64,000 nt of DNA from Bacteroidales bacterium (GTDB taxonomy: Bacteria > Bacteroidota > Bacteroidia > Bacteroidales > WCHB1-69): contig JAEEIG010000037.1 in assembly GCA_016281255.1 (NCBI GenBank), positions 453 to 64,452 of the forward strand, in the 5' to 3' direction. Below, in pieces: positions 45,074 through 62,534 of the stretch (its first letter is position 1; each line of letters starts with the position of its first letter). The notes under the pieces were generated by a model that saw nothing but the letters and a program-made list of their open reading frames with translations, searched no databases and was not told where the DNA came from. The position numbers and the translations under genes were made by a program.

Positions 45074-45874
45074 ATGCAACAAACTGATAAATATGCAGAG
45101 GCTCTGTCGGCGTTCCGGCATCTGCTGGAAATCATGGACGAGTTGCGTGAGAATTGCCCGTGGGATCGAGAACAGACTTTCGACACATTGCGCAACCTCA
45201 CTGTAGAAGAGACTTTCGAGCTGGCGGATGCCATCATGGAGAAGGACTATCCCGACATGTGCAAGGAGCTCGGGGATCTGATGCTCCACATTGTCTTCTA
45301 CTCGAAAATTGCTTCCGAACAGCATCTTTTCGAGGTGAAAGATGTAATTAACCAGCTGTGTGACAAATTAATACGCCGTCACCCGCATATCTACGGCGAG
45401 GTCAAGGCCGACTCGGCCAACCAAGTGCACGAGAACTGGGAGAAGATCAAGCTGCAAACCGAAGGGAACCGCTCCGTGCTGGGCGGCATCCCTTCCGGAA
45501 TGCCGGCGATCACCAAAGCTTACCGCATCCAAGACAAGGTCAGCGGGGTCGGTTTCGACTGGGACAACCGCGACCAAGTGTGGGACAAGGTGCAGGAGGA
45601 GCTCGGAGAACTTCAATCCGAGGTCAACAGTCCCGCCCCCGACCAAGCCCACATTGAAGAGGAGCTCGGCGATGTGCTTTTTGCCATCGTCAACTACTCC
45701 CGCTTTATCAACGTGCACCCGGAAGACGCCTTGGAAAAAACCAACCGCAAATTCCTTCGCCGTTTTCAACTTCTCGAACAATATGTGAAGGCCGACGGAC
45801 GTTCTCTTACCGATATGTCGTTGGCTGAGATGGATGTGTATTGGGAAAAGGCGAAGAGAGAGTTGAGACGTTAG
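45074..45874 (+). CDS. mazG: nucleoside triphosphate pyrophosphohydrolase MazG
   Basis: About 266 aa from MQQTDKYAEAL. Two MazG EExxE/D motifs are present (EETFELADAI, EELGDVLF). The TAG stop lies inside a heptamer array. Confidence 0.9.
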   Translation: MQQTDKYAEALSAFRHLLEIMDELRENCPWDREQTFDTLRNLTVEETFELADAIMEKDYPDMCKELGDLMLHIVFYSKIASEQHLFEVKDVINQLCDKLIRRHPHIYGEVKADSANQVHENWEKIKLQTEGNRSVLGGIPSGMPAITKAYRIQDKVSGVGFDWDNRDQVWDKVQEELGELQSEVNSPAPDQAHIEEELGDVLFAIVNYSRFINVHPEDALEKTNRKFLRRFQLLEQYVKADGRSLTDMSLAEMDVYWEKAKRELRR

Positions 45875-45915
45875 ACTTGGGACTTGGGACTTGGGACTTG
45901 GGACTTGAGATTATA
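45867..45915 (+). repeat. heptamer array GACGTTA (GACTTGG)4 GACTTGA GATTATA
   Basis: Read directly. It contains the mazG stop codon. Confidence 0.95.
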
Positions 45916-45982
45916 AAATAAAGACATTAATCAAAAACAATGGAAAATATGACAAATTATTATGACTTAACATATAACCCCA

Positions 45983-46031
45983 AAAGTCCTAAGTCTTACG
46001 TCTTAAGTCTTACGTCTCAAGTCTTACGTCT
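45983..46031 (-). repeat. heptamer array in inverse orientation (AAAGTCC TAAGTCT TACGTCT TAAGTCT TACGTCT CAAGTCT TACGTCT)
   Basis: Read directly. It is the inverted partner of 45867-45915, 67 bp away. Confidence 0.95.
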
Positions 46032-46047
46032 TATAAACCCCACTCGG

Positions 46048-47973
46048 ATGTACCACAAATTAAATATAGTATATATAATATTAATGTGTATCATCGCTCC
46101 GATGATTACCAGTGCGCAGAAGAGTTCCAAGGCGGCGCCGTTGTTTGAAAAGGCCAAGCAGTGTATGAAATCCAACGATTTCGACAAGGCGTTGACCTAT
46201 CTTTACCAAGCGCAAGCCAAAGATGCGAACTTTGCCGACCTCTATATCATGAAGGGCGACATTTTCAACTTCCGTTTGCAGTCCGACTCCGCCATGTGCA
46301 ACTACCAGCGTGCCATCGAGCTCATCGGCGATCCTGACCCGATGCTCTACTATATTGCCGGAAACGAGGGAGCGAAGTGCGGTGCCTACGAATATGCGCT
46401 CAATACCTTGCAACTTTTCCTGCAGAACGGTCTGCAGTATTCCGATGTGCACCCCGATGCGCAGAAAACCATTGCCAATTGTCGGTTTGCCATGGAGGAG
46501 ATGCGGCATCCCAAGCGTTTTGAGTTGGTTAACATGGGTGCCAACATCAATTCCGAGTGGGACGAAATGCTTGCCGCCATCACTGCGGACGACGAACAAC
46601 TCATTTTCACCGTTAAGCGCCCCCGCGACAAGGGCACCGTCTGCGCCTTCTGTCTCAATGAAGAGGATCTCTATAGCAGTCGTTTCGTCAATGGCGACTG
46701 GCTGCCGCGCGAACCGCTCGGCCCTCCGGTGCGTACCGGCTATAACGAGGGAGCGCAATGTCTCTCCCCCGACGGCAAGTATCTGCTTTACACCATGTGC
46801 GATGCCGACTTCGGGATGGGAAGCTGCGATATCTATTGGGCCAAGCTCATGGGTGACAAGTGGTCACGGCCCCGCAATTTCGGTGCGCCGGTGAACACTT
46901 CCGCCTGGGAGAGCCAGCCGACCATGTCTTCCGACGGCATGACCGTCTATTTTGCCTCTTCCCGTCCGGGCGGGTACGGCGGTATGGACATCTGGAAGAC
47001 CACCATGACCGCAGAAGGGGAGTTCACGGTTCCCGAGAATCTCGGTCCGTCGATCAACACCCCCGGCGACGATGCCGCCCCCTTCATCCACAGTGACGGC
47101 CGCACACTCTACTTCGCCTCTAACGGTCGCGTAGGCATGGGAGGCTATGATCTCTACTACACTACCCTCCAGCCGGATGGTACGTGGAGCGACCCCAAGA
47201 ATATGGGTTACCCTATCAACTCCCCTGCTGATGAGATCAATATCTTCATTAACGCCTCTGGTACAATGGCTTACATGGCTTCCGACAAAGACGGGGGCTA
47301 CGGCGGTCTCGACCTTTACCGTTTCGAGCTCGACGATGAGTTGCGTCCCAACCCTGTCACCTACATCAAGGGTCGTGTGCGCGACGCCTTCACCGGCGAT
47401 CCGTTGTCGGCCCGCATCGAGATGATCGACCTCTCCACACGTCAGCTTCTCACCTCCACCACTTCGGATCCGCTGACCGGCAGTTATCTTGCCTGTATTC
47501 ACACCGGGGGCAACGTGCTGCTCAACGTTTCGCATCCCGACTATCCGTTCTATTCCGAGAACTTCCAGCTGGAGCGCACCTACACGGAACTTTCCCCGTA
47601 TCTGAAAGACATTGCCTTGCAGCCCACGGATGTGGGAACGGTGGTGACATTGAAGAACGTCTTCTTCGACTTCGACAAGACCGAGCTACGGCCCGAGTCG
47701 TACGTGGAGCTTGACAAGTTGGTTGAGTATCTCCGAAAGCACAACATCCGGATCGAGATCGGAGGGCACACCGACGACCAGGGTTCCGACGAGTACAACG
47801 ACCGTTTGTCGGAGAGTCGTGCCAAGTCGGTGTATGACTACTTGGTGAGCAAAGGCATCTCCGCCGACCGGTTGCAGTACAAGGGTTATGGCAAGCGGAT
47901 GCCGGTTGCCGACAACGCCACCGAGGAGGGGCGTGCGGCGAACCGGCGGACCGAGTTCAAGATCATACGGTGA
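46048..47973 (+). CDS. OmpA-family outer-membrane protein (TPR + TolB-like beta-propeller repeats + OmpA C-terminal domain)
   Basis: The start at 46048 (MYHKLNIVYIILMCIIAPMITSAQ) lies downstream of the repeat array. PD40-like repeats are present (YFASSRPGGYGGMDIW, YFASNGRVGMGGYDLY, YMASDKDGGYGGLDLY). OmpA motif GHTDDQGSDEYNDRLSESRA...NRRTEFKI. Confidence 0.8.
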   Translation: MYHKLNIVYIILMCIIAPMITSAQKSSKAAPLFEKAKQCMKSNDFDKALTYLYQAQAKDANFADLYIMKGDIFNFRLQSDSAMCNYQRAIELIGDPDPMLYYIAGNEGAKCGAYEYALNTLQLFLQNGLQYSDVHPDAQKTIANCRFAMEEMRHPKRFELVNMGANINSEWDEMLAAITADDEQLIFTVKRPRDKGTVCAFCLNEEDLYSSRFVNGDWLPREPLGPPVRTGYNEGAQCLSPDGKYLLYTMCDADFGMGSCDIYWAKLMGDKWSRPRNFGAPVNTSAWESQPTMSSDGMTVYFASSRPGGYGGMDIWKTTMTAEGEFTVPENLGPSINTPGDDAAPFIHSDGRTLYFASNGRVGMGGYDLYYTTLQPDGTWSDPKNMGYPINSPADEINIFINASGTMAYMASDKDGGYGGLDLYRFELDDELRPNPVTYIKGRVRDAFTGDPLSARIEMIDLSTRQLLTSTTSDPLTGSYLACIHTGGNVLLNVSHPDYPFYSENFQLERTYTELSPYLKDIALQPTDVGTVVTLKNVFFDFDKTELRPESYVELDKLVEYLRKHNIRIEIGGHTDDQGSDEYNDRLSESRAKSVYDYLVSKGISADRLQYKGYGKRMPVADNATEEGRAANRRTEFKIIR

Positions 47974-48004
47974 TTAGTGATTTGTGAGTTGTGAGTTGTG
48001 ATTT
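47970..48004 (+). repeat. heptamer array GTGATTA GTGATTT GTGAGTT GTGAGTT GTGATTT
   Basis: Read directly. It contains the TGA stop of the OmpA-family gene. Confidence 0.9.
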
Positions 48005-48034
48005 GAATTGCTGATAATCAGAAGGTTATGAGAT

Positions 48035-48073
48035 ATCGCGCCGAGAATTGAAAATTCCGGCGCGATTTGTGTT
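48035..48073 (+). terminator. rho-independent terminator after the OmpA-family gene
   Basis: ATCGCGCCG-A-GAATT-gaaa-AATTC-CGGCGCGAT followed by TTGTGTT. Confidence 0.65.
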
Positions 48074-48377
48074 CATATACGTGTTGTTCAATTCTCAAAG
48101 AGATGTTAAAAATCCTCTTGGAATGGGCTTCTGAGAGGGTTCGGGTGAGATGGGTCGTTCGTGTAACCAAGGAAATCCTCCGCCCGTATAACCAAACAAA
48201 GGCCTAAAACGATGTGAAAAGGAGTGTTTATAACGTGTGGATAGGTGTTAATAGCCTGTTGAAATTTTTTTTCGTGTTCCCATTTGTCTGTAATATGTTG
48301 ATAATAAGCGTAATAAGATTTTTTTTCAAAAAAAACGAAAAAAATTCGACAAATGAACAATCAATGAAAAAAAAATG

Positions 48378-48385
48378 TATTTTTG
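48378..48385 (+). promoter_or_regulatory. putative -7 box for the giant adhesin gene
   Basis: TATTTTTG lies 115 nt upstream of the ATG at 48501. It is followed by a purine/A-rich leader. Confidence 0.5.
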
Positions 48386-48500
48386 CAGGTTAAAAATTAT
48401 GTATAGTGTAATGTAATGTATAGTATTGACTTAAAGAGAGAAAAGAAAAGAAATTAAGGAAAAATAAATAATATAAATTACAAATTAAACAAAAAACAGT

Positions 48501-51500
48501 ATGAAAAAACTATTATCAATTTGCTTTTTAAGCATTCTGCTGGGGCTTCTGAGCTTCAGCACTCAGGCGCAAAGCAATTGCTACGGTTTCTGGATGGAGA
48601 ACCTCCAGCCAGACGTTCTGGATCATGTTGCCAATCCTGGTAACGAGACCGGAACCTACGCGTTGAACCATACGTTGGGTCATGCCGTTTTGCGCGGCCA
48701 ATCCAATCGTTATGTCGGCAACGTGGATTCAAGCGCCATCGGTCAACCCGAGCTTTATGAGTTGCATTTTTGCGACAATGCCTCTGGAAAGAAGCTTTCT
48801 TTCGACTGGCAGTTGGAGCGCAGAAATCCTGCAACCGGCAATTGGCAGATCGTGAACGATAACCTGTCTGCTTATGCGGATTTCGGTATCTACACGCTCT
48901 ACCCGCAACTCAATCAAGCAGGCCAATGCCAGAGCATCAAATGGCTCGGCGGTATTGTCCCGAACGGAATCGGCTACTGCGACAACAGTCAGGTCTATTC
49001 CTTGCTGGACACTATCCTTGGCATTCCTCCTTGCACCACCCCGACCAACTATCCCGGTGCTGTGCAAACCCAAGCTGGTACTCTGCCCGGCAGCGTTCTC
49101 AACACGCTGGGTCAGGCTATCCCTTCCATTGGTATGACTCCCATCTATACTGAAGGTTTCGATTACTTCTATGCAGACTTCCTTGCTTCCACCCGTACCA
49201 TTGTTGTCATCAACTGGAAACAGGTGGGTGATTACAGATTGGTGATGCGCGTGCGCGAGCGCGTTGGCGGTACTGATTGGACCAATGCCACCTGGAACAA
49301 ATACGGCGAAGGCAATGTCATGAACGAAACTGCCTATATCGGCGGTCACATGTCTTGCTGCGGTCCTGTCCTCCTTGTTGATACTTTGCATTATCCTGTT
49401 CTTGACACACTCAACATGGAAGTTTGTCAAGGAACCACCACTGAAATGGGTAGCCCTTACACCTACACTTTCGGTGTTGATCAAAGATGCATCCTCGACA
49501 CGACTGTCTTGGTTGGCGAAATCGTCAATGCAGACTGTCCGAGCGAAAGCCCCTGCCAATATATTGATATTGACACTCTCCGCAATGTGAACTACCTTGT
49601 GCGCATGGCTCCTGTTGCGCAAGTTGAAAAACATACTGACACGCTCTGCAAGTGCGACGCATTCACCACCGACATGGTTCGTGCTATGGTGGAATTCGAT
49701 TCTACTGAAATCGCTACTTTTGTTACCGGAGACGAAACCGTTGAGTATAAACTGCAATGGTTGCACGTGTTCCAAGAAGGTGAACATTTACCTGCAGGTG
49801 ATGGTGCTCTTTGTCCTAATTGTGATTGGTATGAATCCATCTATCCGCGCTCAATTACGGTTAATCCTGCAACCAATGATACTACCTATATGTACATTGT
49901 TCGTCAGGTCAACACCTACAACAATTATGGAGAAGAGGTGGTTTGCGCTGGTCCTGCCGATACCATTTACATCACTTTCCGCGAGATTGTGAAGCCGGTG
50001 GTTCCTGCTGACACTGCTTTCTGTCTTGAAACTATTGAGGCAGGTAGCACTTTGACCATTAACGCCACTCATGATCCTGTATGTGCAAACTCAACCCGTT
50101 GGTATACAAGCAGAAAGTATAATTATTGGACATATAAATATGATTATTCAGGTTATCTGGGTGATGTTGATGCTCTTGTAATTAACCTCAATGATTACAC
50201 CCCTTCTGTCAATAAGGACACCACGGTGCGTTTCTATGCATTCTCTATTGATACGACCAATGGTTGCATGTCCTCTCAGGTTTCTGTTTACACGATTGTT
50301 TTCCACCAGACTCCTGTGCTTGATACAGTAACGGCTCCTAACCTCTACAATTGTCCTGGTGTTGATGTGCCGATGGAAGTTATTGTGGACAACAATCCTT
50401 TGAATACCCCGAGTCCTTATACCTTTGTATGGACTGGTGTAACTGGTGTCGATTTGTTGAATCCGGCTCCTGCTCCGGCTAGCATCGCAACGGTGTCCAC
50501 TATCTCTACGCAAGCTAATTCATCATACGAATTACCATTGAGTAACAACTTTAATTACACTTATAGCCAGCAAATTTTCACGAAAGACGAAGTGGCTTCT
50601 GGTGTGATTAGTACTATTTCTTTCAATTATTCTTCAGCCAATCAGATGACCGCTAAGGACGATGTGAAGATTTATCTTGGTACTACTGATAAAGAATCTT
50701 TTACGGGCTATGGCAACTGGGATCTGACATCTGAGTTGACTTTAGTTTATTCAGGCAATCTCAATTGTAAGCAGGGATGGAATGATTTTACACTTACTAC
50801 TCCTTTTGACTACGATGGACAGAAGAACTTGTTGGTTGTTATTAGCGATGAGTCTGGTGTTTATGATGGTACTTCTTATAAATTTTATACAACTCCTGCA
50901 GGTGCATATAGAACATTGGTTGTGATGCAAGATGGCAGTGTTGCTACGCCTACATCCTATAATGGTGCTAGGAAAAACGTCCGTAGTGATATTAAGTTTA
51001 CGGTTGTTCCTGCCGGTGCTTACACGACCTCTGATGAATTCCAGCAAGCTTACTATCATATTTCCGATACTGATACATGTCATACCGCTTATACTTCTAG
51101 CGTTTATGTCATTGATGCCAACAACTGTAAGTCTACTCCTATCGTCTTTAACTACTTCTTGAACGATACTGTTGCTCCTGTAATCACTCCTGCTACTGTT
51201 TCTTACGGTATCAATGCTTGTGAAATTACGAGCCAGAACGTTCCTGCATACGACAACCTCGCTGAACTGGTTAACGCATTTAATTTGGATATCTACGACA
51301 GCTGTGGTGCTGAGTTTGTCGTTTTGGTTGGCCATAACGATGTTATGACGATCGATTCTTGTCAACAGACCCTCGTGAGAACCTATACCTTTGCTGATCA
51401 TTGCGGAAATCCTGCTACTTTCACTCAGACGGTTGTTTCTCGTGACTCTGTTGCTCCTTACTATACTTTCGATCGTCCGATCCGTCTCGACCCGATTCCT

Positions 51501-54500
51501 GCCGGTGACTGTAAGTTCAATGCTCCCAGCAGACAAGTCATGATTGACGCTATCGCTCCTTATGTGGCTGACAACTGCACCGATTCCGCTTTCTTGATGG
51601 ACAGCATTACCTTCGTTTGGGAGAACACCGACAAGGATCCCGCTTCTGATACCAACATCTTCAGATTGAAGAACCACCTGACCATTACCGCCACTATCAC
51701 TGACAAGTGCGATAACAGCTTCTCCGAAGTGGTCTTCTTCCTCGATCGTCCTGATGATCTCGAAATCGTCGGTCATCCCGTTTCCCATACCGGTGACCTT
51801 TGCGAACAACAGACTGCCACTCTCTTCTTCGATATGAACAGTATCGTTGATGACCAGGAAGTTGGTCCGTTCCCGCCGTACACCCTCACTTGGTATGAGG
51901 TGAATGGTAAGGATGTCACCTTCTCTGATATTCACAATGACACCACAGTGGTGACCTTCAATGAGGGTGCTGGCGACTATACCTTCGCTATGCGTGTGGT
52001 GAACGGCAACGATTGCGAAGCTGTTTCCGCTCCCGCCACCATCAATGTCAGAGAACTCCCGAGCTTGAGCATTATCCCGATCGTCCAACAACCCGGTGTT
52101 GTGGAACCCTACTGCCCGACCTATGGTAATTTGACCATCGAGGCCGTTGTTGCCAATGCCGAGACTTCCGGCGCTACCGGCTACACTTACACTTGGTCTG
52201 GTGAGAGTGTGAATATCTACTCCACCACTGAGACCACTTGGATCACGATTATCCCTGAATGGTGTGATACCACCTACACTGCCACTGTTGTTGTTTCTGA
52301 TGAAAGAGGTTGTACTGCTGAAACGTCCCGTACTTTCGAAGCAGCTGCCCACGATATGATTTTCAATGGCATTATTCCTGATTCTACCGTTGTTATCAAC
52401 CAAGGTTGTGAACTCCATGTTCCTAACTATATGGATCAGATTGCTGCTGAGAACATCACGGACGATTGTTATACCTTCTCCCAGATTACGCAAAAAGCTG
52501 GTTGGTATAAGCAAACTCCTGCTGCCGGTACTGTTTTCTCTACCGATTCAGTCGAGGTTACCATTACCATCACCAATCCTTGCGGCCAGACGGTTTCTAC
52601 CACGACTTATGCACGCAAACCTGCCAACTATCCTTCTGTGAAGATTGTTCCTGACACTATCGCTGTCTGCTACAATGAGTTCTTCGAAGGTGTTACCTAT
52701 AATACCGTAAGCGAAAATCTGGATGACAACACCACTTGGCGTTGGACCATCGGCAACGGCATTGTTGGCACTCAAGATTTCGTCACTCTTCCCAACGACG
52801 CTTTCAACGCTCCTGTGAACCAAGACACGACCTATGTCGTCAATGTCCAAGCTGTGAACAGCCTCGGTTGTCCTGCTACCGCTACCGCTAATCTTGTCAT
52901 CTACTACCAGGGTGATTCTGTCCAACTCCGTGTTTGGAACAACAACCTCTGTGGTGAGGATTATTACAATGGCGTGATTGCTGTTGATTTCGTCCCCACG
53001 AACTATGTGGTTACCCTGTCTCAAGGCAATGTTGACCTGGAGGTTAAGATTTCCGATAACAACCAACATGAACCTACCCTTTGGAATACGGTGATTTTCG
53101 ACTCTTTGGCTCCTGGTTACTATACCGTCACGGTTGAGAACCTGCATGGTTGTACCATGTCTGCCGATACCGTTGTCAGAACGGATGATGTCATCATTTC
53201 TGAACCTACTGTTACGGTTACCGATGTTACCGTTTGTACTGATAATAACGGTGTCATTTCAGTTGTTCGCGAGAACAATTACGGTTTCACCTTGTTCAAT
53301 TCCGATTATTCTGTTGAATACACCGGTATTGTGGCAGGTGCGAACATCAACTTCTCCGGTCTCTCCGCAGCTGAGTACAAGTTGGTAAAGACTCATATTC
53401 CTACCGGATGTGAATTTGCCTGGACTTACAATGTCCTTGATGCTTCTGAACCTGAAACCCAATTCGATATCAACTATACAAACAATACTCGTTGTGACAA
53501 TCCTAACGGTACCATTCACTTCACCGTTACCGGTTCTGATCCTTTGACTTTGCATGTTTGGAATGCAAATTATGACTATACTACTGGCGCCATCACCACT
53601 GATACTACTATCACGGGTCTTGGTTCTACTCAGGGATATATTTTCTATCTTTGCGAAGTTCAGAATACAGTTACTCAATGTAAGAGCGTCGTTTCACGTG
53701 TTCTGATTGAGAATAAAGCTGTTCTTCCTTCCTTTACGGCTACTCCTACTAATAACACCATTTGCCCGAACAACACTGCTTATAACAACAATGTCGAGAA
53801 TTTGGTCAACGGTAAGATTACGATTGCTCCGGCTAATGCGTACACTTATACTGTAATGGATGCGATTACGCTTGACACTGTTAAGACCTCTCTTGATTCT
53901 TTGGCCGAAGGTTCTTATGTCGTTATTGCTGTTAATGAGCAGAATGGTTGTGCTGCTATGAAGGTTGCCAATATTGGCAACACCTATTACCAACCTGTTG
54001 TCGAAACCATTTCTCAAACTCCCAACAGCGTTTGTGACACCACTTACGCTCATCAGTATGATGGTTCTCTGACTATCAAGGTCAAATCCAGCACCAATAC
54101 CATTGCTGATTTCAACAACTACATCCGTCCTTACATGATTGTGCTTGACAACGACACTGTCATTGCTCAATCCAATATCCAGCAAAATACGATTACACAC
54201 CTCGCAGATGGTGTTCACAACTATTACATCCTCACGGATAACAAATGTTATGTCACTGGTTCATACGAAGTGAAAAAGTATGTGATCGACACGATGAGAC
54301 TGGCGACCACTCCTGATCACTTCTGTGCTCCTACTTTCGAGAAACCTGGTGACGGTACTATCGTTGTTCTCTCACCTCGTAATTCTGCTGCACACGGTTA
54401 CAAGTACAAATTCTACGATGCCGACAGCACTGATATGACTGTTCCTTACGAAATGCCTATGACTTACACCAAGTACTGGCTTGCCGATGGTTTATATACC

Positions 54501-57500
54501 GTATTTGCTATCGATACCATTACCGGTTGTACGTTCACTGAGAACATTTATGTCGAGAAGGAACTCTACACCATCACTATCGCTGCTGACGCTACTCCCA
54601 GCACCTATTGCAGCCAAACCTCTGGCGACGGTACGATCACTGTGAATGCTACCAGCACCAATCCTGACGCTGTTTTCAACTACAGCCTTGACAATCAGAA
54701 CTGGCAGGTGAGCAATCTGTTCAGCAATTTGGCTAACAAGACTTATACCGTCTATGTCAAGGATGTCACCACTCGTTGTGTGGACAGCATTTATGTCGGT
54801 ATCAGCTACAGCGATTGCAGACCTGAAATCTCCATCGTTGACCAAAACGGCGACACTGCTCCGTTCGAATATTGTATCAACGACGAGAACGTCAAACTTT
54901 GCGCTAACGCTTTCTATCCTCTTGGCAGCGAATGCGAAGGTACGTTCACCTATCATTGGGATGCTCCTTGTTCAGATCCTCAGTATTCTGACGACAAGTG
55001 TATCGACGTCTTCATTGACCACGTGATGCCGAACGGTTGTAACTACATCCTTACGGTCACCAATCAACTGACGGGTTGTTCTTATGACACGATGGTTTAT
55101 GTCTATGTCAATCCTAAACCTGTCATCGGTTTCGATGTGAATGGTACAACCTATTATAACGCCGAGCAATCTATTCCTTTCTGCGAGCAAGAGAATCTCC
55201 ATATTACTGTTGTCTCTAAGAATGGTCAAACTCTGGTTCCTGAACTTACTTACTGGACTCTCGGTCACATTGGTACTGGTTTGAGCTTCGATACCACTGG
55301 CGCTGGCTACACGCAAGATTACATTACCATCTGCGCTTACTCTACCAGCGACAAGGGTTGTGTTTCCAACATTGCTTCTCTGCCGTTGAACTTCAACCGC
55401 GTGGAAAGAATCACTGTTGACACCACCGTTTGTGGAAGTTTCCAAGTTCCGGACGATATCAGAACTATTACCAGCAATACCTATCCTTACTATGATACTG
55501 TTTCTCATACGTATCCTGGTACACATCCTTACTGCGACCGCATTGTGACTTACAATGTCAAGCTCATCTCTGCTCCTGAGGTTACTCCTTTGAACGAGTA
55601 TGTGGCTGCTTTCTGTGAGGATATGAACTATACGTTGGCTAACTTCGTTGATTCATTCGCCGTTGACACCAATGGTGCTACTACAACTACGAAGTGGCAA
55701 GCTGCTTTGCGTCCTTCCTATAATTACGTTGATGTTGAAGCTACTACTGTTGTTGACTATGCATTTGCTACCACTCACAGAGTTAGATATGTTGCCACCA
55801 ACTGCTGCGGTACTGACTACTCTGATATCTATTTCAATGTTTCCAAGGCTCCTCGTATCGACAGCTTCCAATTGCAATCTAAGTATTGTAGAGCTCAACA
55901 GGCTACCTTAACATTTGATTTCACTGTTTATAATCCTGCTATCGCTGTTTTGACACTTGGTGCTGATACTGTTAGAAGTTATTACATGTATTCTAATGGT
56001 TCTACCAGTCGTACATTCACGTTTACTCCTAACCATGCTAATTATGATGGTAAGACACTCACTTTGAGCATTAGAAATCTAAACAACCTCTGTGATGTTG
56101 TTACTGCAAGCCAAGTGTTCCACGTTGATACTACTTTCATTAATAACTTCACTATTGATACGATTTATTGTGCTGGTAATACTCTCCATCACAGTGATCT
56201 CATCGATGGTACTGGTTATACTAATGTTCGTTTGTGGCATCAAATCGCTGGTCAAACTGATCAAAGAATTTATAATAATTCTACGGTTACTTATGCCATG
56301 AATGGTTATCTCGTATACTTCACCATGAATGATGGTTGTGGTAACCAGATTACGACCAACATTGATACTATCTTTGTGAAACCTCAACCGAGCGTTACTC
56401 TCAATGGTGATGATTATTACAATGTTTGTGAGGATGAATTTGAATTGCCGACTGTTAACATTCCTTCAAATGTTCAATCTCTCGTCTTATCACAAGGTTG
56501 GCAAATGTACAATGGTACTACTCAATCATTTGAAGATACCACTGCTGCCGATATTATAGCTCTTGCTGCTGATAGCATTGTAAGAATTCGTTACTTTGTT
56601 GAGACTGACTGTAATGTCGCTTATACTCAAGCAATCGAGGCTTACTATAAGTTCGCTCCTGAGATTGCCCAACTTCCTACTCTCACTATTTGCCCGGACA
56701 ACACTATTGCTGACGTTCTTCCTACTTCATTGGGTATTACTTGGCATAACATTCTTCTTCCCAACACTAATAACTTCCGTACTACTCGTTATTATTTAGT
56801 GAAGGGAACGAATACTGTTGAGGTTTATCCTACTTCTGTCTTTAGCAACTATTATTCATACAATGATGGTAAATTACGCATTGTAGTTACCAACGAGTGT
56901 GGTTCTGCTTCAACCGAAGCTACTATCCACATCCCGGTTTACAGCCACAACGAAATCGTTGCTGTTGACACATGTAAAGGTCTCACCATTGCAGCCTTCG
57001 CAGCTACTCCTCAATGGACCGGTGATCAAGGTGTTGTCACCTCTGAGACTTGGGTGCGTCTTGTCAATAATGAATATGTTGCTACCACCGATGAGTATGT
57101 CGTGAACACCAATACCACTATTTCTTATCGTTGGATTACTGTTTGCGAAGACACTCTCTACGCTGCTCCTGTCACGATTCATCCTCTGCTGACTCCCGAA
57201 GTTACTATCTTGGCTGACAACCTTGTCAACGATACTATCGCCATCTGTGAGGGTAACACGATCAATCCTACTGCTTTTGTCAGCTATCCTATCTATTCTT
57301 CCACCGTTACTGACACTACTTGGTTCTTCAACGGTAATGCTTACGATCCTTCTTATCAGTTCACCGCAGCTGACAATGACAAGGAACTTGTTGTCAAGCT
57401 TTCTACCACTTGCGATGATTCCTACGATACTGTCATTGTGAGAGTTTATCCTACTCCGGATCCTACCATCGACGGTCCTCTGACTGCTTGTAGTGGAGAA

Positions 57501-58709
57501 GAAATTACCATTACTGCACAGGCTGGCTTCAGCAGCTATGTCTTCACCGTAAATGGTCAAGCTTCTCAACCTCAATCCAGCAATGTCTTCGAGACCACTG
57601 TCTTCGACAACAATCCTGATGGTGTTGATATCACTACTGTTACTGTCACTGTCACCGACAATCATTCTTGTACCGGTACTTCTTCTGACAAGGTTGAAGT
57701 CTCTGTCACCGACCAAGCTGCATTTGTCTTCTTCAATGAAAACGGTACCGAGAACGAAACCCACAATTACACCGTCAACGATGGTGGTGGTTTGAACTAC
57801 GGTTGGATGATCAGCACGGAGTGCGCTGATTATGACACGTTGGTCTATGTTGAGTATGACATTTACTATGAAGGTCAGCTCATCTCCAACGATGCTATCG
57901 GTGAATACTTCCACACTGGCAACTACACTGACCAATGGGGTCATCAAACGCCTTTCATCAGCAGCAATACATTCAGCTGGCTGAGCGGTAATGGTACTCC
58001 TTTGACCAATACTACTTACTACAACTTCGCTGTTGCTAATCCTAATGTCGCCACCAATGGCAACCACTTCCCGAACACCAACCTTGGTCTCGGCAACACT
58101 AACGTTTACGATGACCTCTGGTTGCGCTTCATCGGTGACCGTGGTGTGAATGCCACTTTGGTTCCGTTCAGATTGGATGGTGAATACAAGATTGTTTACA
58201 GACTCTACTCCACCTCTCATGCTGATGACTTCGAGCATTACTACACCGAAGATAATCCTGCTCACGATAATTTCGGTACGCAGTCTCACCTCGGTGGTCA
58301 GAACGCTCTCGTCAATGTTGCTATTCGCAAGCTCTTAGCTATCGACTCTATCACCATCAACGTCGAGAACGCTGTTGCTGGTCCTTCTGAGACCACTGCT
58401 CCTGTCCTTGCTCCTGCTATCAGCTCTGAGGAGAATGTGATTGTTCCTGAAATGGAAGTTTGGCCGAACCCGGCTCCTTCTATCGTCACCACCTTCAAGG
58501 CTCGCGTTTACAACATGAGCGGTGAGGCTACTGTGACCATCACGAACTTCACTGGTAAACAAGTCTATAGTGGCAATATCAATATTGATAGCGATAACTT
58601 CTACTTCGAGGCCGACGTTAACAGCCTTGCCGTGGGTGCTTACATCATGACTGTTCGCACCGATGACGCTGTTGTCACCAAGAAACTGGTTGTGACCGTT
58701 AGACAATAA
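48501..58709 (+). CDS. giant (3402 aa) Cys-rich cell-surface repeat protein, SprB/HYR-like modules, T9SS C-terminal sorting domain
   Basis: Uninterrupted 10,209-nt ORF with signal peptide MKKLLSICFLSILLGLLSFSTQAQ. Repeated C...(N/D)G(T/S/V/K)I modules: CTDNNGVISVV, CDNPNGTIHFTV, GDGTIVVLSP, GDGTITVNATS. HYR-like D.V.P...C...CGN modules. CTD: VWPNPAPSIVTTF...GAYIMTVRTDDAVVTKKLVV. Confidence 0.85.
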   Translation: MKKLLSICFLSILLGLLSFSTQAQSNCYGFWMENLQPDVLDHVANPGNETGTYALNHTLGHAVLRGQSNRYVGNVDSSAIGQPELYELHFCDNASGKKLSFDWQLERRNPATGNWQIVNDNLSAYADFGIYTLYPQLNQAGQCQSIKWLGGIVPNGIGYCDNSQVYSLLDTILGIPPCTTPTNYPGAVQTQAGTLPGSVLNTLGQAIPSIGMTPIYTEGFDYFYADFLASTRTIVVINWKQVGDYRLVMRVRERVGGTDWTNATWNKYGEGNVMNETAYIGGHMSCCGPVLLVDTLHYPVLDTLNMEVCQGTTTEMGSPYTYTFGVDQRCILDTTVLVGEIVNADCPSESPCQYIDIDTLRNVNYLVRMAPVAQVEKHTDTLCKCDAFTTDMVRAMVEFDSTEIATFVTGDETVEYKLQWLHVFQEGEHLPAGDGALCPNCDWYESIYPRSITVNPATNDTTYMYIVRQVNTYNNYGEEVVCAGPADTIYITFREIVKPVVPADTAFCLETIEAGSTLTINATHDPVCANSTRWYTSRKYNYWTYKYDYSGYLGDVDALVINLNDYTPSVNKDTTVRFYAFSIDTTNGCMSSQVSVYTIVFHQTPVLDTVTAPNLYNCPGVDVPMEVIVDNNPLNTPSPYTFVWTGVTGVDLLNPAPAPASIATVSTISTQANSSYELPLSNNFNYTYSQQIFTKDEVASGVISTISFNYSSANQMTAKDDVKIYLGTTDKESFTGYGNWDLTSELTLVYSGNLNCKQGWNDFTLTTPFDYDGQKNLLVVISDESGVYDGTSYKFYTTPAGAYRTLVVMQDGSVATPTSYNGARKNVRSDIKFTVVPAGAYTTSDEFQQAYYHISDTDTCHTAYTSSVYVIDANNCKSTPIVFNYFLNDTVAPVITPATVSYGINACEITSQNVPAYDNLAELVNAFNLDIYDSCGAEFVVLVGHNDVMTIDSCQQTLVRTYTFADHCGNPATFTQTVVSRDSVAPYYTFDRPIRLDPIPAGDCKFNAPSRQVMIDAIAPYVADNCTDSAFLMDSITFVWENTDKDPASDTNIFRLKNHLTITATITDKCDNSFSEVVFFLDRPDDLEIVGHPVSHTGDLCEQQTATLFFDMNSIVDDQEVGPFPPYTLTWYEVNGKDVTFSDIHNDTTVVTFNEGAGDYTFAMRVVNGNDCEAVSAPATINVRELPSLSIIPIVQQPGVVEPYCPTYGNLTIEAVVANAETSGATGYTYTWSGESVNIYSTTETTWITIIPEWCDTTYTATVVVSDERGCTAETSRTFEAAAHDMIFNGIIPDSTVVINQGCELHVPNYMDQIAAENITDDCYTFSQITQKAGWYKQTPAAGTVFSTDSVEVTITITNPCGQTVSTTTYARKPANYPSVKIVPDTIAVCYNEFFEGVTYNTVSENLDDNTTWRWTIGNGIVGTQDFVTLPNDAFNAPVNQDTTYVVNVQAVNSLGCPATATANLVIYYQGDSVQLRVWNNNLCGEDYYNGVIAVDFVPTNYVVTLSQGNVDLEVKISDNNQHEPTLWNTVIFDSLAPGYYTVTVENLHGCTMSADTVVRTDDVIISEPTVTVTDVTVCTDNNGVISVVRENNYGFTLFNSDYSVEYTGIVAGANINFSGLSAAEYKLVKTHIPTGCEFAWTYNVLDASEPETQFDINYTNNTRCDNPNGTIHFTVTGSDPLTLHVWNANYDYTTGAITTDTTITGLGSTQGYIFYLCEVQNTVTQCKSVVSRVLIENKAVLPSFTATPTNNTICPNNTAYNNNVENLVNGKITIAPANAYTYTVMDAITLDTVKTSLDSLAEGSYVVIAVNEQNGCAAMKVANIGNTYYQPVVETISQTPNSVCDTTYAHQYDGSLTIKVKSSTNTIADFNNYIRPYMIVLDNDTVIAQSNIQQNTITHLADGVHNYYILTDNKCYVTGSYEVKKYVIDTMRLATTPDHFCAPTFEKPGDGTIVVLSPRNSAAHGYKYKFYDADSTDMTVPYEMPMTYTKYWLADGLYTVFAIDTITGCTFTENIYVEKELYTITIAADATPSTYCSQTSGDGTITVNATSTNPDAVFNYSLDNQNWQVSNLFSNLANKTYTVYVKDVTTRCVDSIYVGISYSDCRPEISIVDQNGDTAPFEYCINDENVKLCANAFYPLGSECEGTFTYHWDAPCSDPQYSDDKCIDVFIDHVMPNGCNYILTVTNQLTGCSYDTMVYVYVNPKPVIGFDVNGTTYYNAEQSIPFCEQENLHITVVSKNGQTLVPELTYWTLGHIGTGLSFDTTGAGYTQDYITICAYSTSDKGCVSNIASLPLNFNRVERITVDTTVCGSFQVPDDIRTITSNTYPYYDTVSHTYPGTHPYCDRIVTYNVKLISAPEVTPLNEYVAAFCEDMNYTLANFVDSFAVDTNGATTTTKWQAALRPSYNYVDVEATTVVDYAFATTHRVRYVATNCCGTDYSDIYFNVSKAPRIDSFQLQSKYCRAQQATLTFDFTVYNPAIAVLTLGADTVRSYYMYSNGSTSRTFTFTPNHANYDGKTLTLSIRNLNNLCDVVTASQVFHVDTTFINNFTIDTIYCAGNTLHHSDLIDGTGYTNVRLWHQIAGQTDQRIYNNSTVTYAMNGYLVYFTMNDGCGNQITTNIDTIFVKPQPSVTLNGDDYYNVCEDEFELPTVNIPSNVQSLVLSQGWQMYNGTTQSFEDTTAADIIALAADSIVRIRYFVETDCNVAYTQAIEAYYKFAPEIAQLPTLTICPDNTIADVLPTSLGITWHNILLPNTNNFRTTRYYLVKGTNTVEVYPTSVFSNYYSYNDGKLRIVVTNECGSASTEATIHIPVYSHNEIVAVDTCKGLTIAAFAATPQWTGDQGVVTSETWVRLVNNEYVATTDEYVVNTNTTISYRWITVCEDTLYAAPVTIHPLLTPEVTILADNLVNDTIAICEGNTINPTAFVSYPIYSSTVTDTTWFFNGNAYDPSYQFTAADNDKELVVKLSTTCDDSYDTVIVRVYPTPDPTIDGPLTACSGEEITITAQAGFSSYVFTVNGQASQPQSSNVFETTVFDNNPDGVDITTVTVTVTDNHSCTGTSSDKVEVSVTDQAAFVFFNENGTENETHNYTVNDGGGLNYGWMISTECADYDTLVYVEYDIYYEGQLISNDAIGEYFHTGNYTDQWGHQTPFISSNTFSWLSGNGTPLTNTTYYNFAVANPNVATNGNHFPNTNLGLGNTNVYDDLWLRFIGDRGVNATLVPFRLDGEYKIVYRLYSTSHADDFEHYYTEDNPAHDNFGTQSHLGGQNALVNVAIRKLLAIDSITINVENAVAGPSETTAPVLAPAISSEENVIVPEMEVWPNPAPSIVTTFKARVYNMSGEATVTITNFTGKQVYSGNINIDSDNFYFEADVNSLAVGAYIMTVRTDDAVVTKKLVVTVRQ

Positions 58710-58732
58710 TCAATAGTTATTCATACATGGAA

Positions 58733-58767
58733 GGAGTTGTGCGCACTGGCGTGCAACTCCTTTTTTT
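58733..58767 (+). terminator. rho-independent terminator of the giant gene
   Basis: GGAGTTGTGCGC-actg-GCGTGCAACTCC (two G-U pairs) followed by T7. Confidence 0.85.
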
Positions 58768-58953
58768 GATTTGAGATTTGAGATTTGAGATTTAAGACTT
58801 AAGACTTAAGACTTATGACTTATGACTTAAGATTTAAGACTAAAATCTAAAATCTAAAATCTAAAGTCTAAGGTCTAAAGTCCCAAGTCTAAAGTCTAAA
58901 GTCTAAAATCTAAAGTCCCAATTCTAAAGTCTCTAAAGTCTAAAGTCCCAAGT
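58768..58953. repeat. 186-bp head-to-head inverted heptamer array (10 forward GAYTTRA units, then 16 reverse CTAAAGT-type units)
   Basis: Read directly: (GATTTGA)3 GATTTAA (GACTTAA)2 (GACTTAT)2 GACTTAA GATTTAA, then (CTAAAAT)3 CTAAAGT CTAAGGT CTAAAGT CCCAAGT (CTAAAGT)2 CTAAAAT CTAAAGT CCCAATT CTAAAGT ct (CTAAAGT)2 CCCAAGT. Confidence 0.95.
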
Positions 58954-58971: not shown

Positions 58972-60741
58972 ATGACCAACTACAAACGATATATCCCTTG
59001 GTTGTTCGCGGTGTTCTTGTTGAATGCGGTGTATGTTGTATTGACGATATTCGCGTTTTTGATGATCGAGCCGTTCGCGAAGTTGCTGTTTCGCGGCCAT
59101 TTGGAGGGATTGAGTCCATTGTCATCCTATTTTGTGTCGATTCTTGGCGGATACCTTCCGATGGACAGTCAGGGTGTTTCGTTTGTGACTTTGGTTTCCG
59201 CGGCCGTTTTTCTCTTCCTGTTGCGCAATCTTTCGGCGTATGCTTCTCAGTGGTTGATGGCCCATGTGCGTAGTGATTTTCTCTTTACGCTCCGCAATCG
59301 TCTCTACGACAAGATGATTTCATTGCCGTTGGGTTATTTCAACAAAGAGAGTCGCGGCGATGCGGTCACCCGTGCGGTGAACGACACCCAGGAGGTGGAA
59401 TACACGGTTCTCAACTCCATCTATCAGTTCCTTACCGACCCTCTCACCTTGTTTTGCTATCTCGGTTTCCTTTTTTACATCGACTACCAGCTTTCCTTGT
59501 GGGCGGTTTTGTTAATGCCGTTGTCCTTCCTGATCATCGGTTTCTTGGCGCACCGGCTCAAGCGTTCTTCGAAAACCTACCGTCAGCGACTTGGTGTCCT
59601 GTTGTCGCATGTGGAAGAGACTATTTCGGGGTTGCGGGTGATTTACGGTTTTAACGCCCAGGAGCGTGCCTATCGGCGTTTCAACGAGCGGAATCTGCAG
59701 TTCACGCAGAACCAGAAGCGGGTCTATCGACAGAGCTATTTGGCCAACCCGCTGAGTGAGTTCCTCGGGGTAAGTGCTGTTATGGTGGTGTTGGTGATCG
59801 GGGGCTCGTTGGTGCTTTCGGAGCGTTCTTCCTTGTCGGCGGAGCTTTTCATCACCTACATTGCCCTTTTCTCGCAGGTCATCACGCCCATTTCGCGCAT
59901 TTCCTCGGCCTTTTCGGACTACAAGCGCGGGGAGGCGGCGCTGGACCGTATCCGCGATTTTTTGGCGATTCCCGACAATGTGGAGGATAGCGGCGCGGTG
60001 TTGACTCTTCCCGGTTTTCACGAGGCTTTGACGTTCCGGGATGTCTCTTTCGCCTACACGGATGCCGAGGTGTTGAGCCATATCGATCTGACCATTCCGA
60101 AGGGGAAGACGGTGGCGTTTGTGGGGCAGTCGGGTGCTGGAAAATCCACCCTTGCCGATTTGCTGATGCGGTTCTATGACCCTACCGGCGGCGAGATATT
60201 GTTGGACGGGGTGCCCATCCGGCATTACGGGGTGGGGGATTACCGTTCTTTGTTCGCTTTGGTGTCGCAGGATGTGATGCTTTTTCACGACACTATCTAC
60301 CACAATATCACGATGGGGATGGAGGCCACGCCGGAGCAGGTCGCTGAAGCGGCGAAAACGGCCAATATTTACGACTTTGTGATGTCGCTGCCTGACGGGT
60401 TCGGCCATGTCGTCGGCGACCGCGGAACGACGCTTTCCGGCGGCCAGCGGCAACGGGTGAGCATTGCGAGGGCGGTGTTGCGGAAGGCGCCTGTGCTGGT
60501 GCTGGACGAAGCCACCTCGGCGATGGACACGGAGAGCGAGCGGCTGGTGCAGCAGTCGATAGAAGCGTTGTCGAAGCAGTGCACGGTGGTGATGATCGCC
60601 CACAGGCTCTCCACGGTGCAGCGTGCCGACCTGATCTGTGTGCTGGATGCCGGCCGGCTGGTGGAATCCGGCACGCACGAAGAGCTGATGGCGGCGAAAG
60701 GGACTTATTACAAGTTAGTAGTTAGTAGTTGTGATTTGTGA
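58972..60741 (+). CDS. ABC transporter permease/ATP-binding protein (MsbA-like exporter)
   Basis: 589 aa. A six-TM N-terminal half, Walker A GQSGAGKST, signature LSGGQRQR and Walker B LVLDEATSAMD. The last 9 codons (KLVVSSCDL) and the stop are encoded by the repeat array. Confidence 0.9.
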   Translation: MTNYKRYIPWLFAVFLLNAVYVVLTIFAFLMIEPFAKLLFRGHLEGLSPLSSYFVSILGGYLPMDSQGVSFVTLVSAAVFLFLLRNLSAYASQWLMAHVRSDFLFTLRNRLYDKMISLPLGYFNKESRGDAVTRAVNDTQEVEYTVLNSIYQFLTDPLTLFCYLGFLFYIDYQLSLWAVLLMPLSFLIIGFLAHRLKRSSKTYRQRLGVLLSHVEETISGLRVIYGFNAQERAYRRFNERNLQFTQNQKRVYRQSYLANPLSEFLGVSAVMVVLVIGGSLVLSERSSLSAELFITYIALFSQVITPISRISSAFSDYKRGEAALDRIRDFLAIPDNVEDSGAVLTLPGFHEALTFRDVSFAYTDAEVLSHIDLTIPKGKTVAFVGQSGAGKSTLADLLMRFYDPTGGEILLDGVPIRHYGVGDYRSLFALVSQDVMLFHDTIYHNITMGMEATPEQVAEAAKTANIYDFVMSLPDGFGHVVGDRGTTLSGGQRQRVSIARAVLRKAPVLVLDEATSAMDTESERLVQQSIEALSKQCTVVMIAHRLSTVQRADLICVLDAGRLVESGTHEELMAAKGTYYKLVVSSCDL

Positions 60742-60830
60742 TTTGTGATTTGTGATTTGTGATTTGTGATTTGTGATTTGTGATTTGAGATTTGAGATTT
60801 GAGATTTGAGATTTGTGATTTGTGACTTGT
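60714..60830 (+). repeat. heptamer array: degenerate GTTAGTA units, then (GATTTGT)7 (GATTTGA)4 (GATTTGT)2 GACTTGT
   Basis: Read directly; 14 clean units from 60733 to 60830. It spans the ABC gene stop and lies upstream of four-helix cassette 1. Confidence 0.95.
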
Positions 60831-60871
60831 GTTTTTTTAAGTGATGTTTGTTTTTGTATTATAATATTTTT

Positions 60872-60879
60872 TATTTTTG
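60872..60879 (+). promoter_or_regulatory. putative -7 box for four-helix-bundle gene 1
   Basis: TATTTTTG lies 33 nt upstream of the ATG at 60913. The 21-nt leader AAATTATTGTTTAACAAAATA (60883-60903) is identical in cassette 2. Confidence 0.5.
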
Positions 60880-60912
60880 CGGAAATTATTGTTTAACAAA
60901 ATAAATATCCTT

Positions 60913-61341
60913 ATGAAAACTTATTCTTTTGAAAATCTTGATGTTTGGAAATATTCCAGACAATTAGTCAAACAAGTTTACAACATTCAATCTGCATTTC
61001 CATCTTTTGAAAGGTATGGCTTGGGAGACCAAATAAGACGTGCCGTTGTTTCTCTTTCGTCGAATATTGCAGAAGGAAATGCAAGAAGTTCAATCAAGGA
61101 CCAGGTTCATTTCTTAGAAATATCTAAAGGGTCTCTAATGGAAGTCTATTGTCAAATGTTATTAGCCTATGATTTGAATTATATTAATGCAAATCAGCTG
61201 TCAAAGTGCAAAGAGAACATTGATGTCATTTTTAAACTGCTCAATGGCCTCATTTATCAAAAAATCAATCTTATATCTAACAATGCTGTCCAAACCCCAT
61301 ATCGAAACAAATACTGTCAGCCCCATAATCATAAATCATAA
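60913..61341 (+). CDS. four-helix-bundle protein (23S rRNA intervening-sequence protein / Avd-like family)
   Basis: The start at 60913 gives MKTYSFENLDVWKYSRQLV...FGLGDQIRRAVVSLSSNIAEGNAR...GSLMEV, the family pattern. The C-terminal HNHKS and the stop lie inside the downstream array. Confidence 0.85.
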   Translation: MKTYSFENLDVWKYSRQLVKQVYNIQSAFPSFERYGLGDQIRRAVVSLSSNIAEGNARSSIKDQVHFLEISKGSLMEVYCQMLLAYDLNYINANQLSKCKENIDVIFKLLNGLIYQKINLISNNAVQTPYRNKYCQPHNHKS

Positions 61342-61379
61342 GTCATAAATCATAAGTCATAAATCCTAAGTCTAAAATC
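61324..61379 (-). repeat. heptamer array, inverse orientation (CATAATC ATAAATC ATAAGTC ATAAATC ATAAGTC ATAAATC CTAAGTC TAAAATC)
   Basis: Read directly; 8 units between four-helix gene 1 and trmB. Confidence 0.95.
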
Positions 61380-61387
61380 AAACATCA

Positions 61388-62053: not shown

Positions 62054-62088
62054 GACTTGAGACTTGAGACTTGAAACTTAAGACTGTA
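62040..62088 (+). repeat. heptamer array (GACTTAA)2 (GACTTGA)3 AACTTAA GACTGTA
   Basis: Read directly. It contains the stop codons of both convergent genes: trmB (62051-62053) and four-helix gene 2 (62078-62080). Confidence 0.95.
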
Positions 62089-62458: not shown

Positions 62459-62491
62459 ACTATAAAATATTTTGTTAAACAATAATTTTTG

Positions 62492-62499: not shown

Positions 62500-62534
62500 A
62501 TCTTTTTATAATATAAAAAGGGCTTTCTTCAAAA

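Follow-up and report, generated by a model that had tools for sequence, protein, structure and literature searches.

The DNA analysed here (the window) is a stretch of 64,000 nucleotides from Bacteroidales bacterium (GenBank assembly GCA_016281255.1, contig JAEEIG010000037.1, positions 453 to 64,452 of the forward strand), and by far its longest open reading frame (ORF), at 48501..58709 (+), is the giant gene that forms the subject of this work. The ORF comprises 3402 codons, exactly as a preliminary description of the window had placed it, and encodes a protein with a signal peptide at one end and a type IX secretion system (T9SS) sorting domain at the other. Inspection of the N-terminus (MKKLLSICFLSILLGLLSFSTQAQ, followed by Q), made with no predictor, indicated a Sec signal peptide at aa 1–23 (48501..48569, +), with the predicted cleavage between AQA and Q. 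Among the homologues, for which all figures refer to the best 120 of 146 matches, most of the first 40 listed share virtually the same first ~20 residues despite ~40% overall identity, and nearly all of those have Gln as the first mature residue. At the C-terminus, the Pfam model Por_Secre_tail (PF18962) matches aa 3320–3398 (58458..58694, +) with 34.9–35.5 bits (gathering threshold [GA] of 27), and TIGR04183 matches the same residues with 29.1 bits in the whole protein and 33.3 bits in the last 334 aa alone (cut-off of 23). The signal peptide and the type-A-like C-terminal domain (CTD) of the preliminary description were therefore confirmed, the former by inspection and conservation and the latter by two models above their curated cut-offs, while the type B model (TIGR04131) found no match in the NCBIfam scans of the whole protein or of the last 334 aa. 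In the AlphaFold2 (AF2) model of aa 2880–3402, which was built on a 37-sequence alignment and has a mean predicted local distance difference test (pLDDT) score of 86.8, the CTD forms a seven-strand beta-sandwich (aa 3317–3398) after a disordered linker, the fold by which such domains are defined (PMC12618676). The CTD is present in all 37 orthologues whose C-terminal segments were scanned, and every complete homologue listed carries a type A CTD.

The flexible linker that precedes the CTD (aa 3290–3319; 58368..58457, +) has pLDDT values below 50 at aa 3295–3312 and, by analogy with the biology of type A cargo (PMC8729774), is the likely region of cleavage by PorU. Upstream of it lies a conserved beta module of about 215 residues (aa ~3074–3289; 57720..58367, +) that is predicted to be proximal to the membrane. 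This module is modelled with pLDDT of about 90 and contains the motifs THxF, GNHFP, and YDDLW, with invariant columns in 37 orthologues, and scans of the 37 orthologous C-terminal segments gave no consistent Pfam match to it. Without the signal peptide and the CTD, the mature protein has a mass of about 364 kDa and is acidic (predicted pI of 4.3). The motif D(S/T)(A/I/L/V/M/T), which was defined for the general O-glycosylation system of Bacteroidota (PMC8729774), occurs 52 times, compared with 18 ± 4 times in shuffled sequences (maximum of 29 in 1000 shuffles).

Most of the protein between these ends is a stalk of Cys-framed domains. From aa ~870 to 3000, Cys pairs ~27 residues apart recur every ~90 residues, a periodicity that suggests about 25 disulfide-framed immunoglobulin (Ig)-like domains. 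Pfam scans of the whole protein and of ten segments returned the CTD and one HYR_4C-like domain (aa 919–978; 51255..51434, +) and nothing else. The HYR_4C model (PF23237) reaches 26.0 bits when the whole protein is scanned and 30.3 bits with a 401-aa segment, against a GA of 27, and the precomputed domains of P0001, an identical protein, include it as well; of the several HYR-like modules proposed earlier, one borderline domain was recovered. Self-comparison by BLASTP at an E value of 0.01 detected no internal repeats, indicating that the repeats are too diverged for pairwise detection, and an Ig profile derived from the final two domains picks up about 10 internal units, weakly. Seven ~90-aa units at aa 1440–2110 (52818..54830, +), recognized by the Cys periodicity and the orthologue consensus, share the motifs C..NG.I.V and L..G.Y.V...C. 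Among the orthologous segments, 13 of 24 match Y_Y_Y and 4 of 24 match the SprB repeat, the latter weakly (E ≥ 0.003), and neither matches the window copy. The SprB repeat model (PF13573) found nothing in the whole protein at E ≤ 1, in the ten segments at E ≤ 5, or in aa 1440–2110 at E ≤ 0.1, and a profile of aa 1440–2110 (A3) had no match in the PDB. The seven SprB-repeat-like units of the preliminary description are thus real as Cys-framed units, but not as matches to PF13573. A run of about 10 further Cys-framed Ig-like domains follows at aa 2111–3072 (54831..57716, +), defined by the Cys pairs and the Ig-profile matches. Ig_7 (PF19081, CHU_C-associated) matches 18 of 37 orthologous C-terminal segments (best E value of 1e-12), with the window copy below the reporting threshold.

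Comparison with solved structures pointed to GhpA, the grappling hook protein A of Aureispira sp. CCB-QB1 (PDB 9flp), a T9SS substrate of 5898 residues with 52 Ig-like repeats and a 240-nm stem, in which the N-terminus forms the distal hook, the C-terminus lies at the outer membrane, and glycan-like densities are found on all Ig-like domains (bioRxiv 10.1101/2024.01.29.577165). A profile of the C-terminal 523 residues (A2) matched GhpA (9flp_A) with an E value of 1.2e-207 over 29–32 stretches, all of which aligned through the two Ig-like domains of the profile; the assignment to Ig_7 and to the GhpA stem therefore covers the last two Ig-like domains (aa ~2890–3070). Foldseek searches placed GhpA fragments first for the C-terminal AF2 model and, with the N-terminal model, in second and fourth place, and phmmer of the whole protein against the PDB gave a chance match only. 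GhpA thus appears, from profile and model searches, to be the closest solved relative, and the ~90-aa Cys period, the Ig_7 matches of the orthologues, and the GhpA stem together bear out the further Cys-framed Ig-like segments that had been described. Scaled from the 52 repeats of the 240-nm GhpA hook, the stalk would be ~100 nm long.

The N-terminal part of the protein is different in kind. Its first ~280 residues after the signal peptide (aa 24–300; 48570..49400, +) form a lineage-specific head, which is the best-conserved part of the family and carries the motifs FWxENLQP, NYPGA, and GGH(Q/M)SCCG. Among 1.84 billion representative protein clusters, the head was found in 47 only, most of which are giant proteins with the head at the N-terminus. 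AF2 modelled it as all-beta with loops of low confidence. The head had no Pfam match in the window protein or in the orthologous N-terminal segments and no match in the PDB, and a profile of aa 24–880 (A1) searched against a PDB library that included the full GhpA chain returned nothing at E ≤ 1. The C-terminal part of the head (aa ~195–300) is also repeated internally two to six times in about a dozen other proteins (P0143–P0161), most of which are 1000–4600 aa long; this recurrence suggests that it is a beta module in its own right, more widely distributed than the whole head but still very rare. The head is followed by beta/Ig-like domains at aa ~301–663 (49401..50489, +), recognized by AF2 strands and conserved Cys columns, where the Ig profile weakly matches aa 519–611.

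Next to these domains lies a beta-sandwich module resembling DUF4082 (aa ~664–853; 50490..51059, +), which behaves as a cassette. The ~160-aa module that had been noted as unrecognized at aa 670–830 is real and corresponds to this unit, modelled by AF2 as all-beta with pLDDT mostly of 75–90. The window copy had no Pfam match, and DUF4082 (PF13313) itself gave none at E ≤ 0.1; DUF4082 matched 5 of 27 orthologous N-terminal segments (best E value of 6.1e-6), and these matches, for which positions within the segments were not reported, were assigned to the module by its motif pattern. The module is present in roughly 60–70% of homologues, with a copy number of zero to three: the window protein has one, the shortest homologues have none, and homologues of ~3900 aa (P0005, P0022, P0025, P0026, P0029, and P0043) have up to three in the N-terminal third.

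Analysis of the neighbourhood showed that the window encodes the components on which type A cargo depends. PorV (3–1259, −; 476 bits, cut-off of 250) and PorU (1440–5330, −; 1185 bits, cut-off of 420) were identified together with a porP/sprF-family gene, gldJ, gldD, and gldB, all above the model cut-offs (the equivalog cut-offs for GldB, GldD, and GldJ), in agreement with the context described earlier. The only PorP/SprF-family gene of the window lies 42 kb from the giant gene, beside porU and gldJ. No sprF-type gene adjoins the giant gene, as had been stated, and the gene directly downstream encodes an ABC exporter. Directly upstream lies a gene at 45940..47973 (+) whose product combines PD40 and OmpA_C domains (Pfam PD40 and OmpA) and resembles PorE and CHU_0125. 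It scores 321 bits with the PorE model (cut-off of 600) and 333 bits with the model of the CHU_0125 outer-membrane-integrity family (cut-off of 620), below the cut-off in both cases. This gene precedes the giant gene in 46 of 47 loci, which are all the loci whose contig includes the upstream flank. Visual inspection showed a GC-rich hairpin after its stop codon (~48035–48068), and the gene may therefore encode the general PorE of the T9SS instead of a partner dedicated to the giant protein; the constant place of the gene next to the giant cargo gene could reflect function or have no functional meaning.

The gene order around the giant gene is identical in 47 of 47 loci, as far as each contig extends: three conserved genes on the opposite strand, proS, mazG, the PD40-OmpA gene, the giant gene, and the ABC exporter. 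Across these loci, identity is 84–99% for ProS, 66–85% for the PD40-OmpA protein, and 25–54% for the giant protein. The homologues listed have 3250–4500 residues and are colinear end to end, barring a few truncated entries, and those with names are annotated just as "T9SS type A sorting domain-containing protein" of uncultured Bacteroidales. A scan of species-representative genomes recovered 40 loci, one per genome and all in metagenome-assembled genomes, mostly from the gut of cattle, yak, goat, sheep, buffalo, deer, and horse, with one from human (Hadza) gut; no cultured organism was found among these 40. The giant gene therefore appears, from its synteny, to be a core gene of one uncultured lineage of herbivore-gut Bacteroidales. 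Our literature searches found no paper on the protein family.

Codon usage sets the giant gene apart from its neighbours in the window, which served as the codon reference. The frequency of T at third codon positions (T3) is 0.444 and that of G+C (GC3) is 0.46, compared with T3 of 0.07–0.28 and GC3 of ~0.7 in ordinary neighbours, in line with the T-dominated third positions noted earlier, while the frequency of A (A3) is unchanged at 0.094. T-ending codons are preferred across the amino acid families, with fractions in the gene versus the pooled neighbours of 0.71 versus 0.24 for GGT, 0.65 versus 0.14 for GCT, 0.50 versus 0.13 for GTT, 0.43 versus 0.10 for ACT, 0.67 versus 0.16 for CCT, and 0.38 versus 0.11 for TCT. 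GGG, CGG, CGA, AGG, ATA, and TCG are almost unused (TCG in 0 of 211 Ser codons). At four-fold sites, the giant gene has a T frequency of 0.55; the next ordinary genes in rank are gldJ (0.39) and dpp7, which encodes the S46 peptidase (0.25), and each of the three has no more than 1% rare codons (0.010 in the giant gene). The earlier statement that gldJ and the S46 gene share the bias thus holds qualitatively, since they are the next-highest ordinary genes, but the bias of the S46 gene is much weaker. A contrasting "foreign" pattern, with high A and 9–11% rare codons at a T3 of 0.32–0.37, is seen in two AT-rich (GC of 0.32) 23S_rRNA_IVP/bAvd-like genes (IVP genes below) that encode four-helix bundles and flank trmB (60877–61341, +; 62078–62551, −). 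Orthologues of the giant gene in four other syntenic genomes have T3 of 0.30–0.46 against 0.04–0.34 in their own neighbours, with the AT-rich IVP genes set aside. The shared bias of these four orthologues, the rare-codon content of 1.0%, and the unraised A3 agree with the earlier view of the bias as linked to expression rather than foreign origin, and the preference for T-ending codons looks like a gene-specific, expression-linked property. Transcription-linked deamination of C to T is an unlikely cause of the high T3, as the GC skew of the gene is negative.

The sequence in front of the gene is consistent with strong and conserved expression signals. A putative promoter and an A-rich leader of ~110 nt occupy 48366..48500 (+), as indicated by conservation in 13 loci. 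In these loci, including relatives whose proS is 85% identical, AAAAAAAAATGTATTTTTGCA shows no variation and the ~40 nt next to it show very little. A TAnnTTTG-type −7 box lies at 48378–48385, and the promoter assignment is an inference from the known Bacteroidota consensus. The near-invariance in DNA extends from the promoter region through the leader into the first ~60 coding bases (48366–48560; 13 loci including the most distant), so that the DNA of promoter, leader, and signal peptide is far more conserved across the lineage than the mature protein. A regulatory RNA in the leader was rejected, with no Rfam match and no significant fold (z of 0.47), and so was an invertible promoter, as the upstream inverted repeats are A/T tracts only. 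The gene has its own strong intrinsic terminator, a 16-bp stem followed by a T run (58729..58764, +).

The giant gene also varies between strains in a way that its surroundings do not. The window was compared with L048 and L049, contigs from other samples that are ~99% identical to it in all flanking genes, with synonymous divergence (dS) of 0.02–0.08. Two blocks within the gene carry strain-specific alleles: variable block 1 (49900..51400, +), with 48–68% DNA identity to L048/L049 and dS of 0.75, and variable block 2 (55900..57400, +), with 63–81% DNA identity and dS of 0.77. The ratio of nonsynonymous to synonymous divergence (dN/dS) is 0.4–0.5 in the two blocks; over the rest of the gene, dS is 0.06–0.12 and dN/dS is 0.17–0.31, pointing to purifying selection on the backbone. 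In addition, the homologue P0028 is 82–85% identical over aa 721–840, within the DUF4082-like module, and ~40% identical overall. The high dS of the blocks and the patch in P0028 therefore argue for imported alleles rather than local hypermutation, and this pattern indicates cassette exchange between strains. Such block exchange, the PorE-like gene upstream, and the status of the gene as a syntenic core gene had all been overlooked in the preliminary description. The variable blocks of L048/L049 match nothing in the window outside the gene, the window being the sequence searched for silent cassettes. A diversity-generating retroelement, suggested by the nearby bAvd-like genes, was rejected, with no reverse transcriptase in the neighbourhood and with blocks that differ synonymously (dS of ~0.75). 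Replacement of stalk blocks points to selection by something that recognizes the exposed surface, such as phages or grazers.

Some further features of the surroundings were recorded. The three opposite-strand genes (39530–43427, −) are divergent from proS, are present in every locus, and encode a 263-aa secreted protein, a 480-aa barrel with weak matches to FadL/BamG/PorV, and a 533-aa lipoprotein, which has a region rich in Tyr/Trp/Pro/Gly as well as a long tail of Ser/Thr/Pro/Arg. The IVP genes vary in number and place (a single copy between proS and mazG in L002, none in L001 or L004) and in this respect resemble small mobile insertions. Tandem arrays of 7-bp units (AGACTTA/AAGTCTT, GTGATTT, and TTGTGAT), with up to 15 copies each, fill many intergenic gaps, at 36959–37016, 45874–45907, 45984–46033, 47970–48005, 58768–58947, 60729–60835, 61327–61403, 62039–62085, and 62536–62562, and several of them lie on either side of the giant gene and of the AT-rich IVP genes. 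Four loci with full synteny (L028, L029, L031, and L035) lie in records titled "Oscillospiraceae bacterium" or "bacterium", and the bins are probably mislabelled or contaminated.

Taken together, we favour, with better than even confidence, the reading that the giant protein is an abundant, O-glycosylated surface fibre, tethered by its C-terminus to anionic lipopolysaccharide (A-LPS), which acts as an adhesin or outer coat and presents a conserved head at its distal tip. In this mechanism, the protein would be exported by Sec and cut by signal peptidase between AQA and Q, the ~25 Ig-like domains would fold in the periplasm with Cys-Cys disulfides, and the general system of Bacteroidota would O-glycosylate many of the D(S/T)(A/I/L/V/M/T) sites. 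The type A CTD would then be handed to the PorV shuttle and the protein would pass through the T9SS translocon; PorV serves type A CTDs, and PorU links type A cargo to A-LPS in P. gingivalis (PMC12618676, PMC9143113, PMC8729774). PorU would remove the CTD within the flexible linker and join the new C-terminus to A-LPS, so that the protein would be tethered by its C-terminus. The beta module at aa ~3074–3289 would adjoin the membrane, and the Ig-like stalk, roughly 100 nm long, would project outward and place the head (aa 24–300 and adjoining domains) at the distal tip, where it may bind a conserved ligand on a feed particle, a partner cell, or a host surface. Homologous recombination between strains would replace two stalk regions, including the DUF4082-like module, thereby altering the exposed surface while the head, base, and export signals stay untouched. 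The protein is probably made in large amounts, and its designation as a major surface component remains plausible.

Several observations weigh against parts of this reading. Abundant T9SS cargo of P. gingivalis lacks O-glycosylation motifs (PMC8729774), so an enriched motif is no sure sign of glycosylation. Anchoring is not the only fate of type A cargo either, since AmyB is released and RemA partly so (PMC12618676). No ligand-binding fold was recognized in the head by Pfam or by the PDB profile search. Among two-fold codons ending in a pyrimidine, C/(C+T) is 0.49 in the gene and ~0.7–0.8 in the neighbours. A higher share of T at such codons is not the classical pattern of translational selection, so part of the bias may be mutational or may serve another constraint. 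High expression is thus suggested rather than proven, with the neighbouring genes of the window as the codon reference.

Of the alternatives, the most serious, though in our view unlikely, is a coat with a purely protective role. According to it, the protein would form a dense glycosylated brush or an S-layer-like shield against phages, protozoal grazing, and enzymes, and block swapping would alter the epitopes or phage receptors on display. The strong codon optimization and the invariant, strong-looking promoter suggest the very high copy number that a coat would need, and the within-species allelic blocks appear ancient, as is typical of surface antigens or receptors. The enriched O-glycosylation motif fits as well: the S-layer proteins of T. 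forsythia are described as O-glycosylated T9SS cargo, and these proteins and the gingipains of P. gingivalis share with the giant protein a type A CTD and, as predicted for it, PorU/PorV-dependent attachment and abundance at the surface. However, a pure shield would not need its best-conserved part as a distal head, and the Pfam and PDB searches found no similarity to known S-layer proteins. The giant protein has no sequence similarity to the gingipains or the T. forsythia S-layer proteins, is much longer than they are, has a fibrillar Ig architecture, and carries no catalytic or haemagglutinin domains.

The favoured surface fibre could also be given a more specific form modelled on GhpA. In a bold version, which we hold to be rather doubtful, it would be a GhpA-like long-range capture fibre in an anaerobe, with a type A (A-LPS) anchor, a dedicated PorE-like partner, a unique conserved head that grasps a specific rumen target, and a swappable stalk. 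If this were true, the fibre would be a defining organelle of the uncultured herbivore-gut Bacteroidales lineage, the target of the head could be plant fibre, protozoa, fungi, or other bacteria, and exchange of the stalk cassettes would allow strains to escape those phages or grazers for which the fibre is a receptor. Slightly less probable still, and a rival to the favoured reading, is a rigid multi-stranded appendage, in which chains would lie side by side as in GhpA, the N-terminal heads would serve as a capture device, and the PorE-like protein would help to hold the structure in the envelope. The two proteins do share homologous Ig-like domains in the stem and the same layout of an N-terminal special module, an Ig stalk, and a T9SS CTD, and a PorE-like gene adjoins the giant gene in every locus with the upstream flank, as the ghpA cluster, which encodes PorP and PorE homologues (bioRxiv 10.1101/2024.01.29.577165), also includes one. 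In contrast, the head is unrelated in sequence to the hook module of GhpA (residues 26–1402) and to any other GhpA region. The ghpA cluster has PorP-like (GhpB) and PorE-like (GhpC) genes, whereas the PorE-like gene here is below the cut-off, may simply be the general T9SS PorE, as its hairpin after the stop codon suggests, and has no PorP/SprF-like (GhpB-type) gene beside it. The PorP/PorE anchoring proposed for GhpA corresponds to the route known for type B cargo (PMC12618676, PMC9143113), while the CTD here is type A. GhpA is also larger, with 5898 aa and 52 repeats where the giant protein has 3402 aa and about 25, belongs to a marine predator rather than an anaerobic gut organism, and is heptameric, whereas the giant protein is known here from its sequence and from single-chain models.

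A motility adhesin of the RemA type, exposed at the surface, bearing a type A CTD, and driven by the gliding machinery so as to contribute to gliding or cell-cell movement, is improbable. RemA of F. johnsoniae is a surface adhesin with a type A CTD that is involved in gliding (PMC12618676), the dependence on PorV that it shows would hold for the giant protein by inference, and GldB, GldD, and GldJ are encoded in the window with T9SS genes. RemA carries a lectin domain, however, whereas Pfam scans of the whole protein and its segments detected no lectin or RemA-like domain in the giant protein. Moreover, SprB fitted with RemA's type A CTD stayed immobile, and it is the type B CTD that targets cargo to the gliding track (PMC12618676). 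No positive evidence singles out either the multimeric GhpA-like appendage or the RemA-like adhesin.

The SprB-type gliding adhesin that the preliminary description had put first is very improbable. The resemblance to SprB of Flavobacterium johnsoniae is real in that both are very large, fibrillar T9SS proteins with Ig-like repeats and similar short C..NG.I.V motifs in a host with gld genes, and the SprB repeat does match a few orthologous segments weakly. SprB is, however, defined by a type B CTD, which loads the gliding track, and by a cognate sprF immediately downstream (PMC12618676). The giant protein has a type A CTD only, its gene is followed by the ABC exporter instead of sprF, and the SprB repeat model has no match in it; the type A CTD and the missing sprF therefore contradict the SprB-type reading on two defining features. 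Recent acquisition from a donor genome of lower G+C, which the gene's GC of 0.45 against ~0.52–0.57 in the neighbours might suggest, is hardly credible, because the gene has the same position in 47 of 47 loci, its promoter, leader, and signal peptide are near-invariant, the T3 bias recurs in its orthologues, its A3 and rare-codon content are not elevated in the way seen in the AT-rich IVP genes, and the imported alleles are confined to internal blocks.

The uncharacterized family described here combines a stalk of the GhpA/SprB class, a type A anchor, a novel head, and mosaicism within species. It suggests that an Ig stalk of this class can be coupled to a type A sorting domain beside a PorE-like gene, a combination that we did not find described in the T9SS literature that we read. 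The head is a compact conserved domain without known relatives and is suited to expression and binding tests, and the conserved flanks and ends with a swappable interior make the gene a natural marker for strain typing and for studies of recombination in the rumen. All the homologues found come from uncultured Bacteroidales, mostly of ruminant and horse guts, an abundant lineage without a cultured member. The giant protein is probably the most conspicuous surface structure of this lineage and therefore a candidate for attachment to feed or partner cells and for recognition by phages and protozoa.

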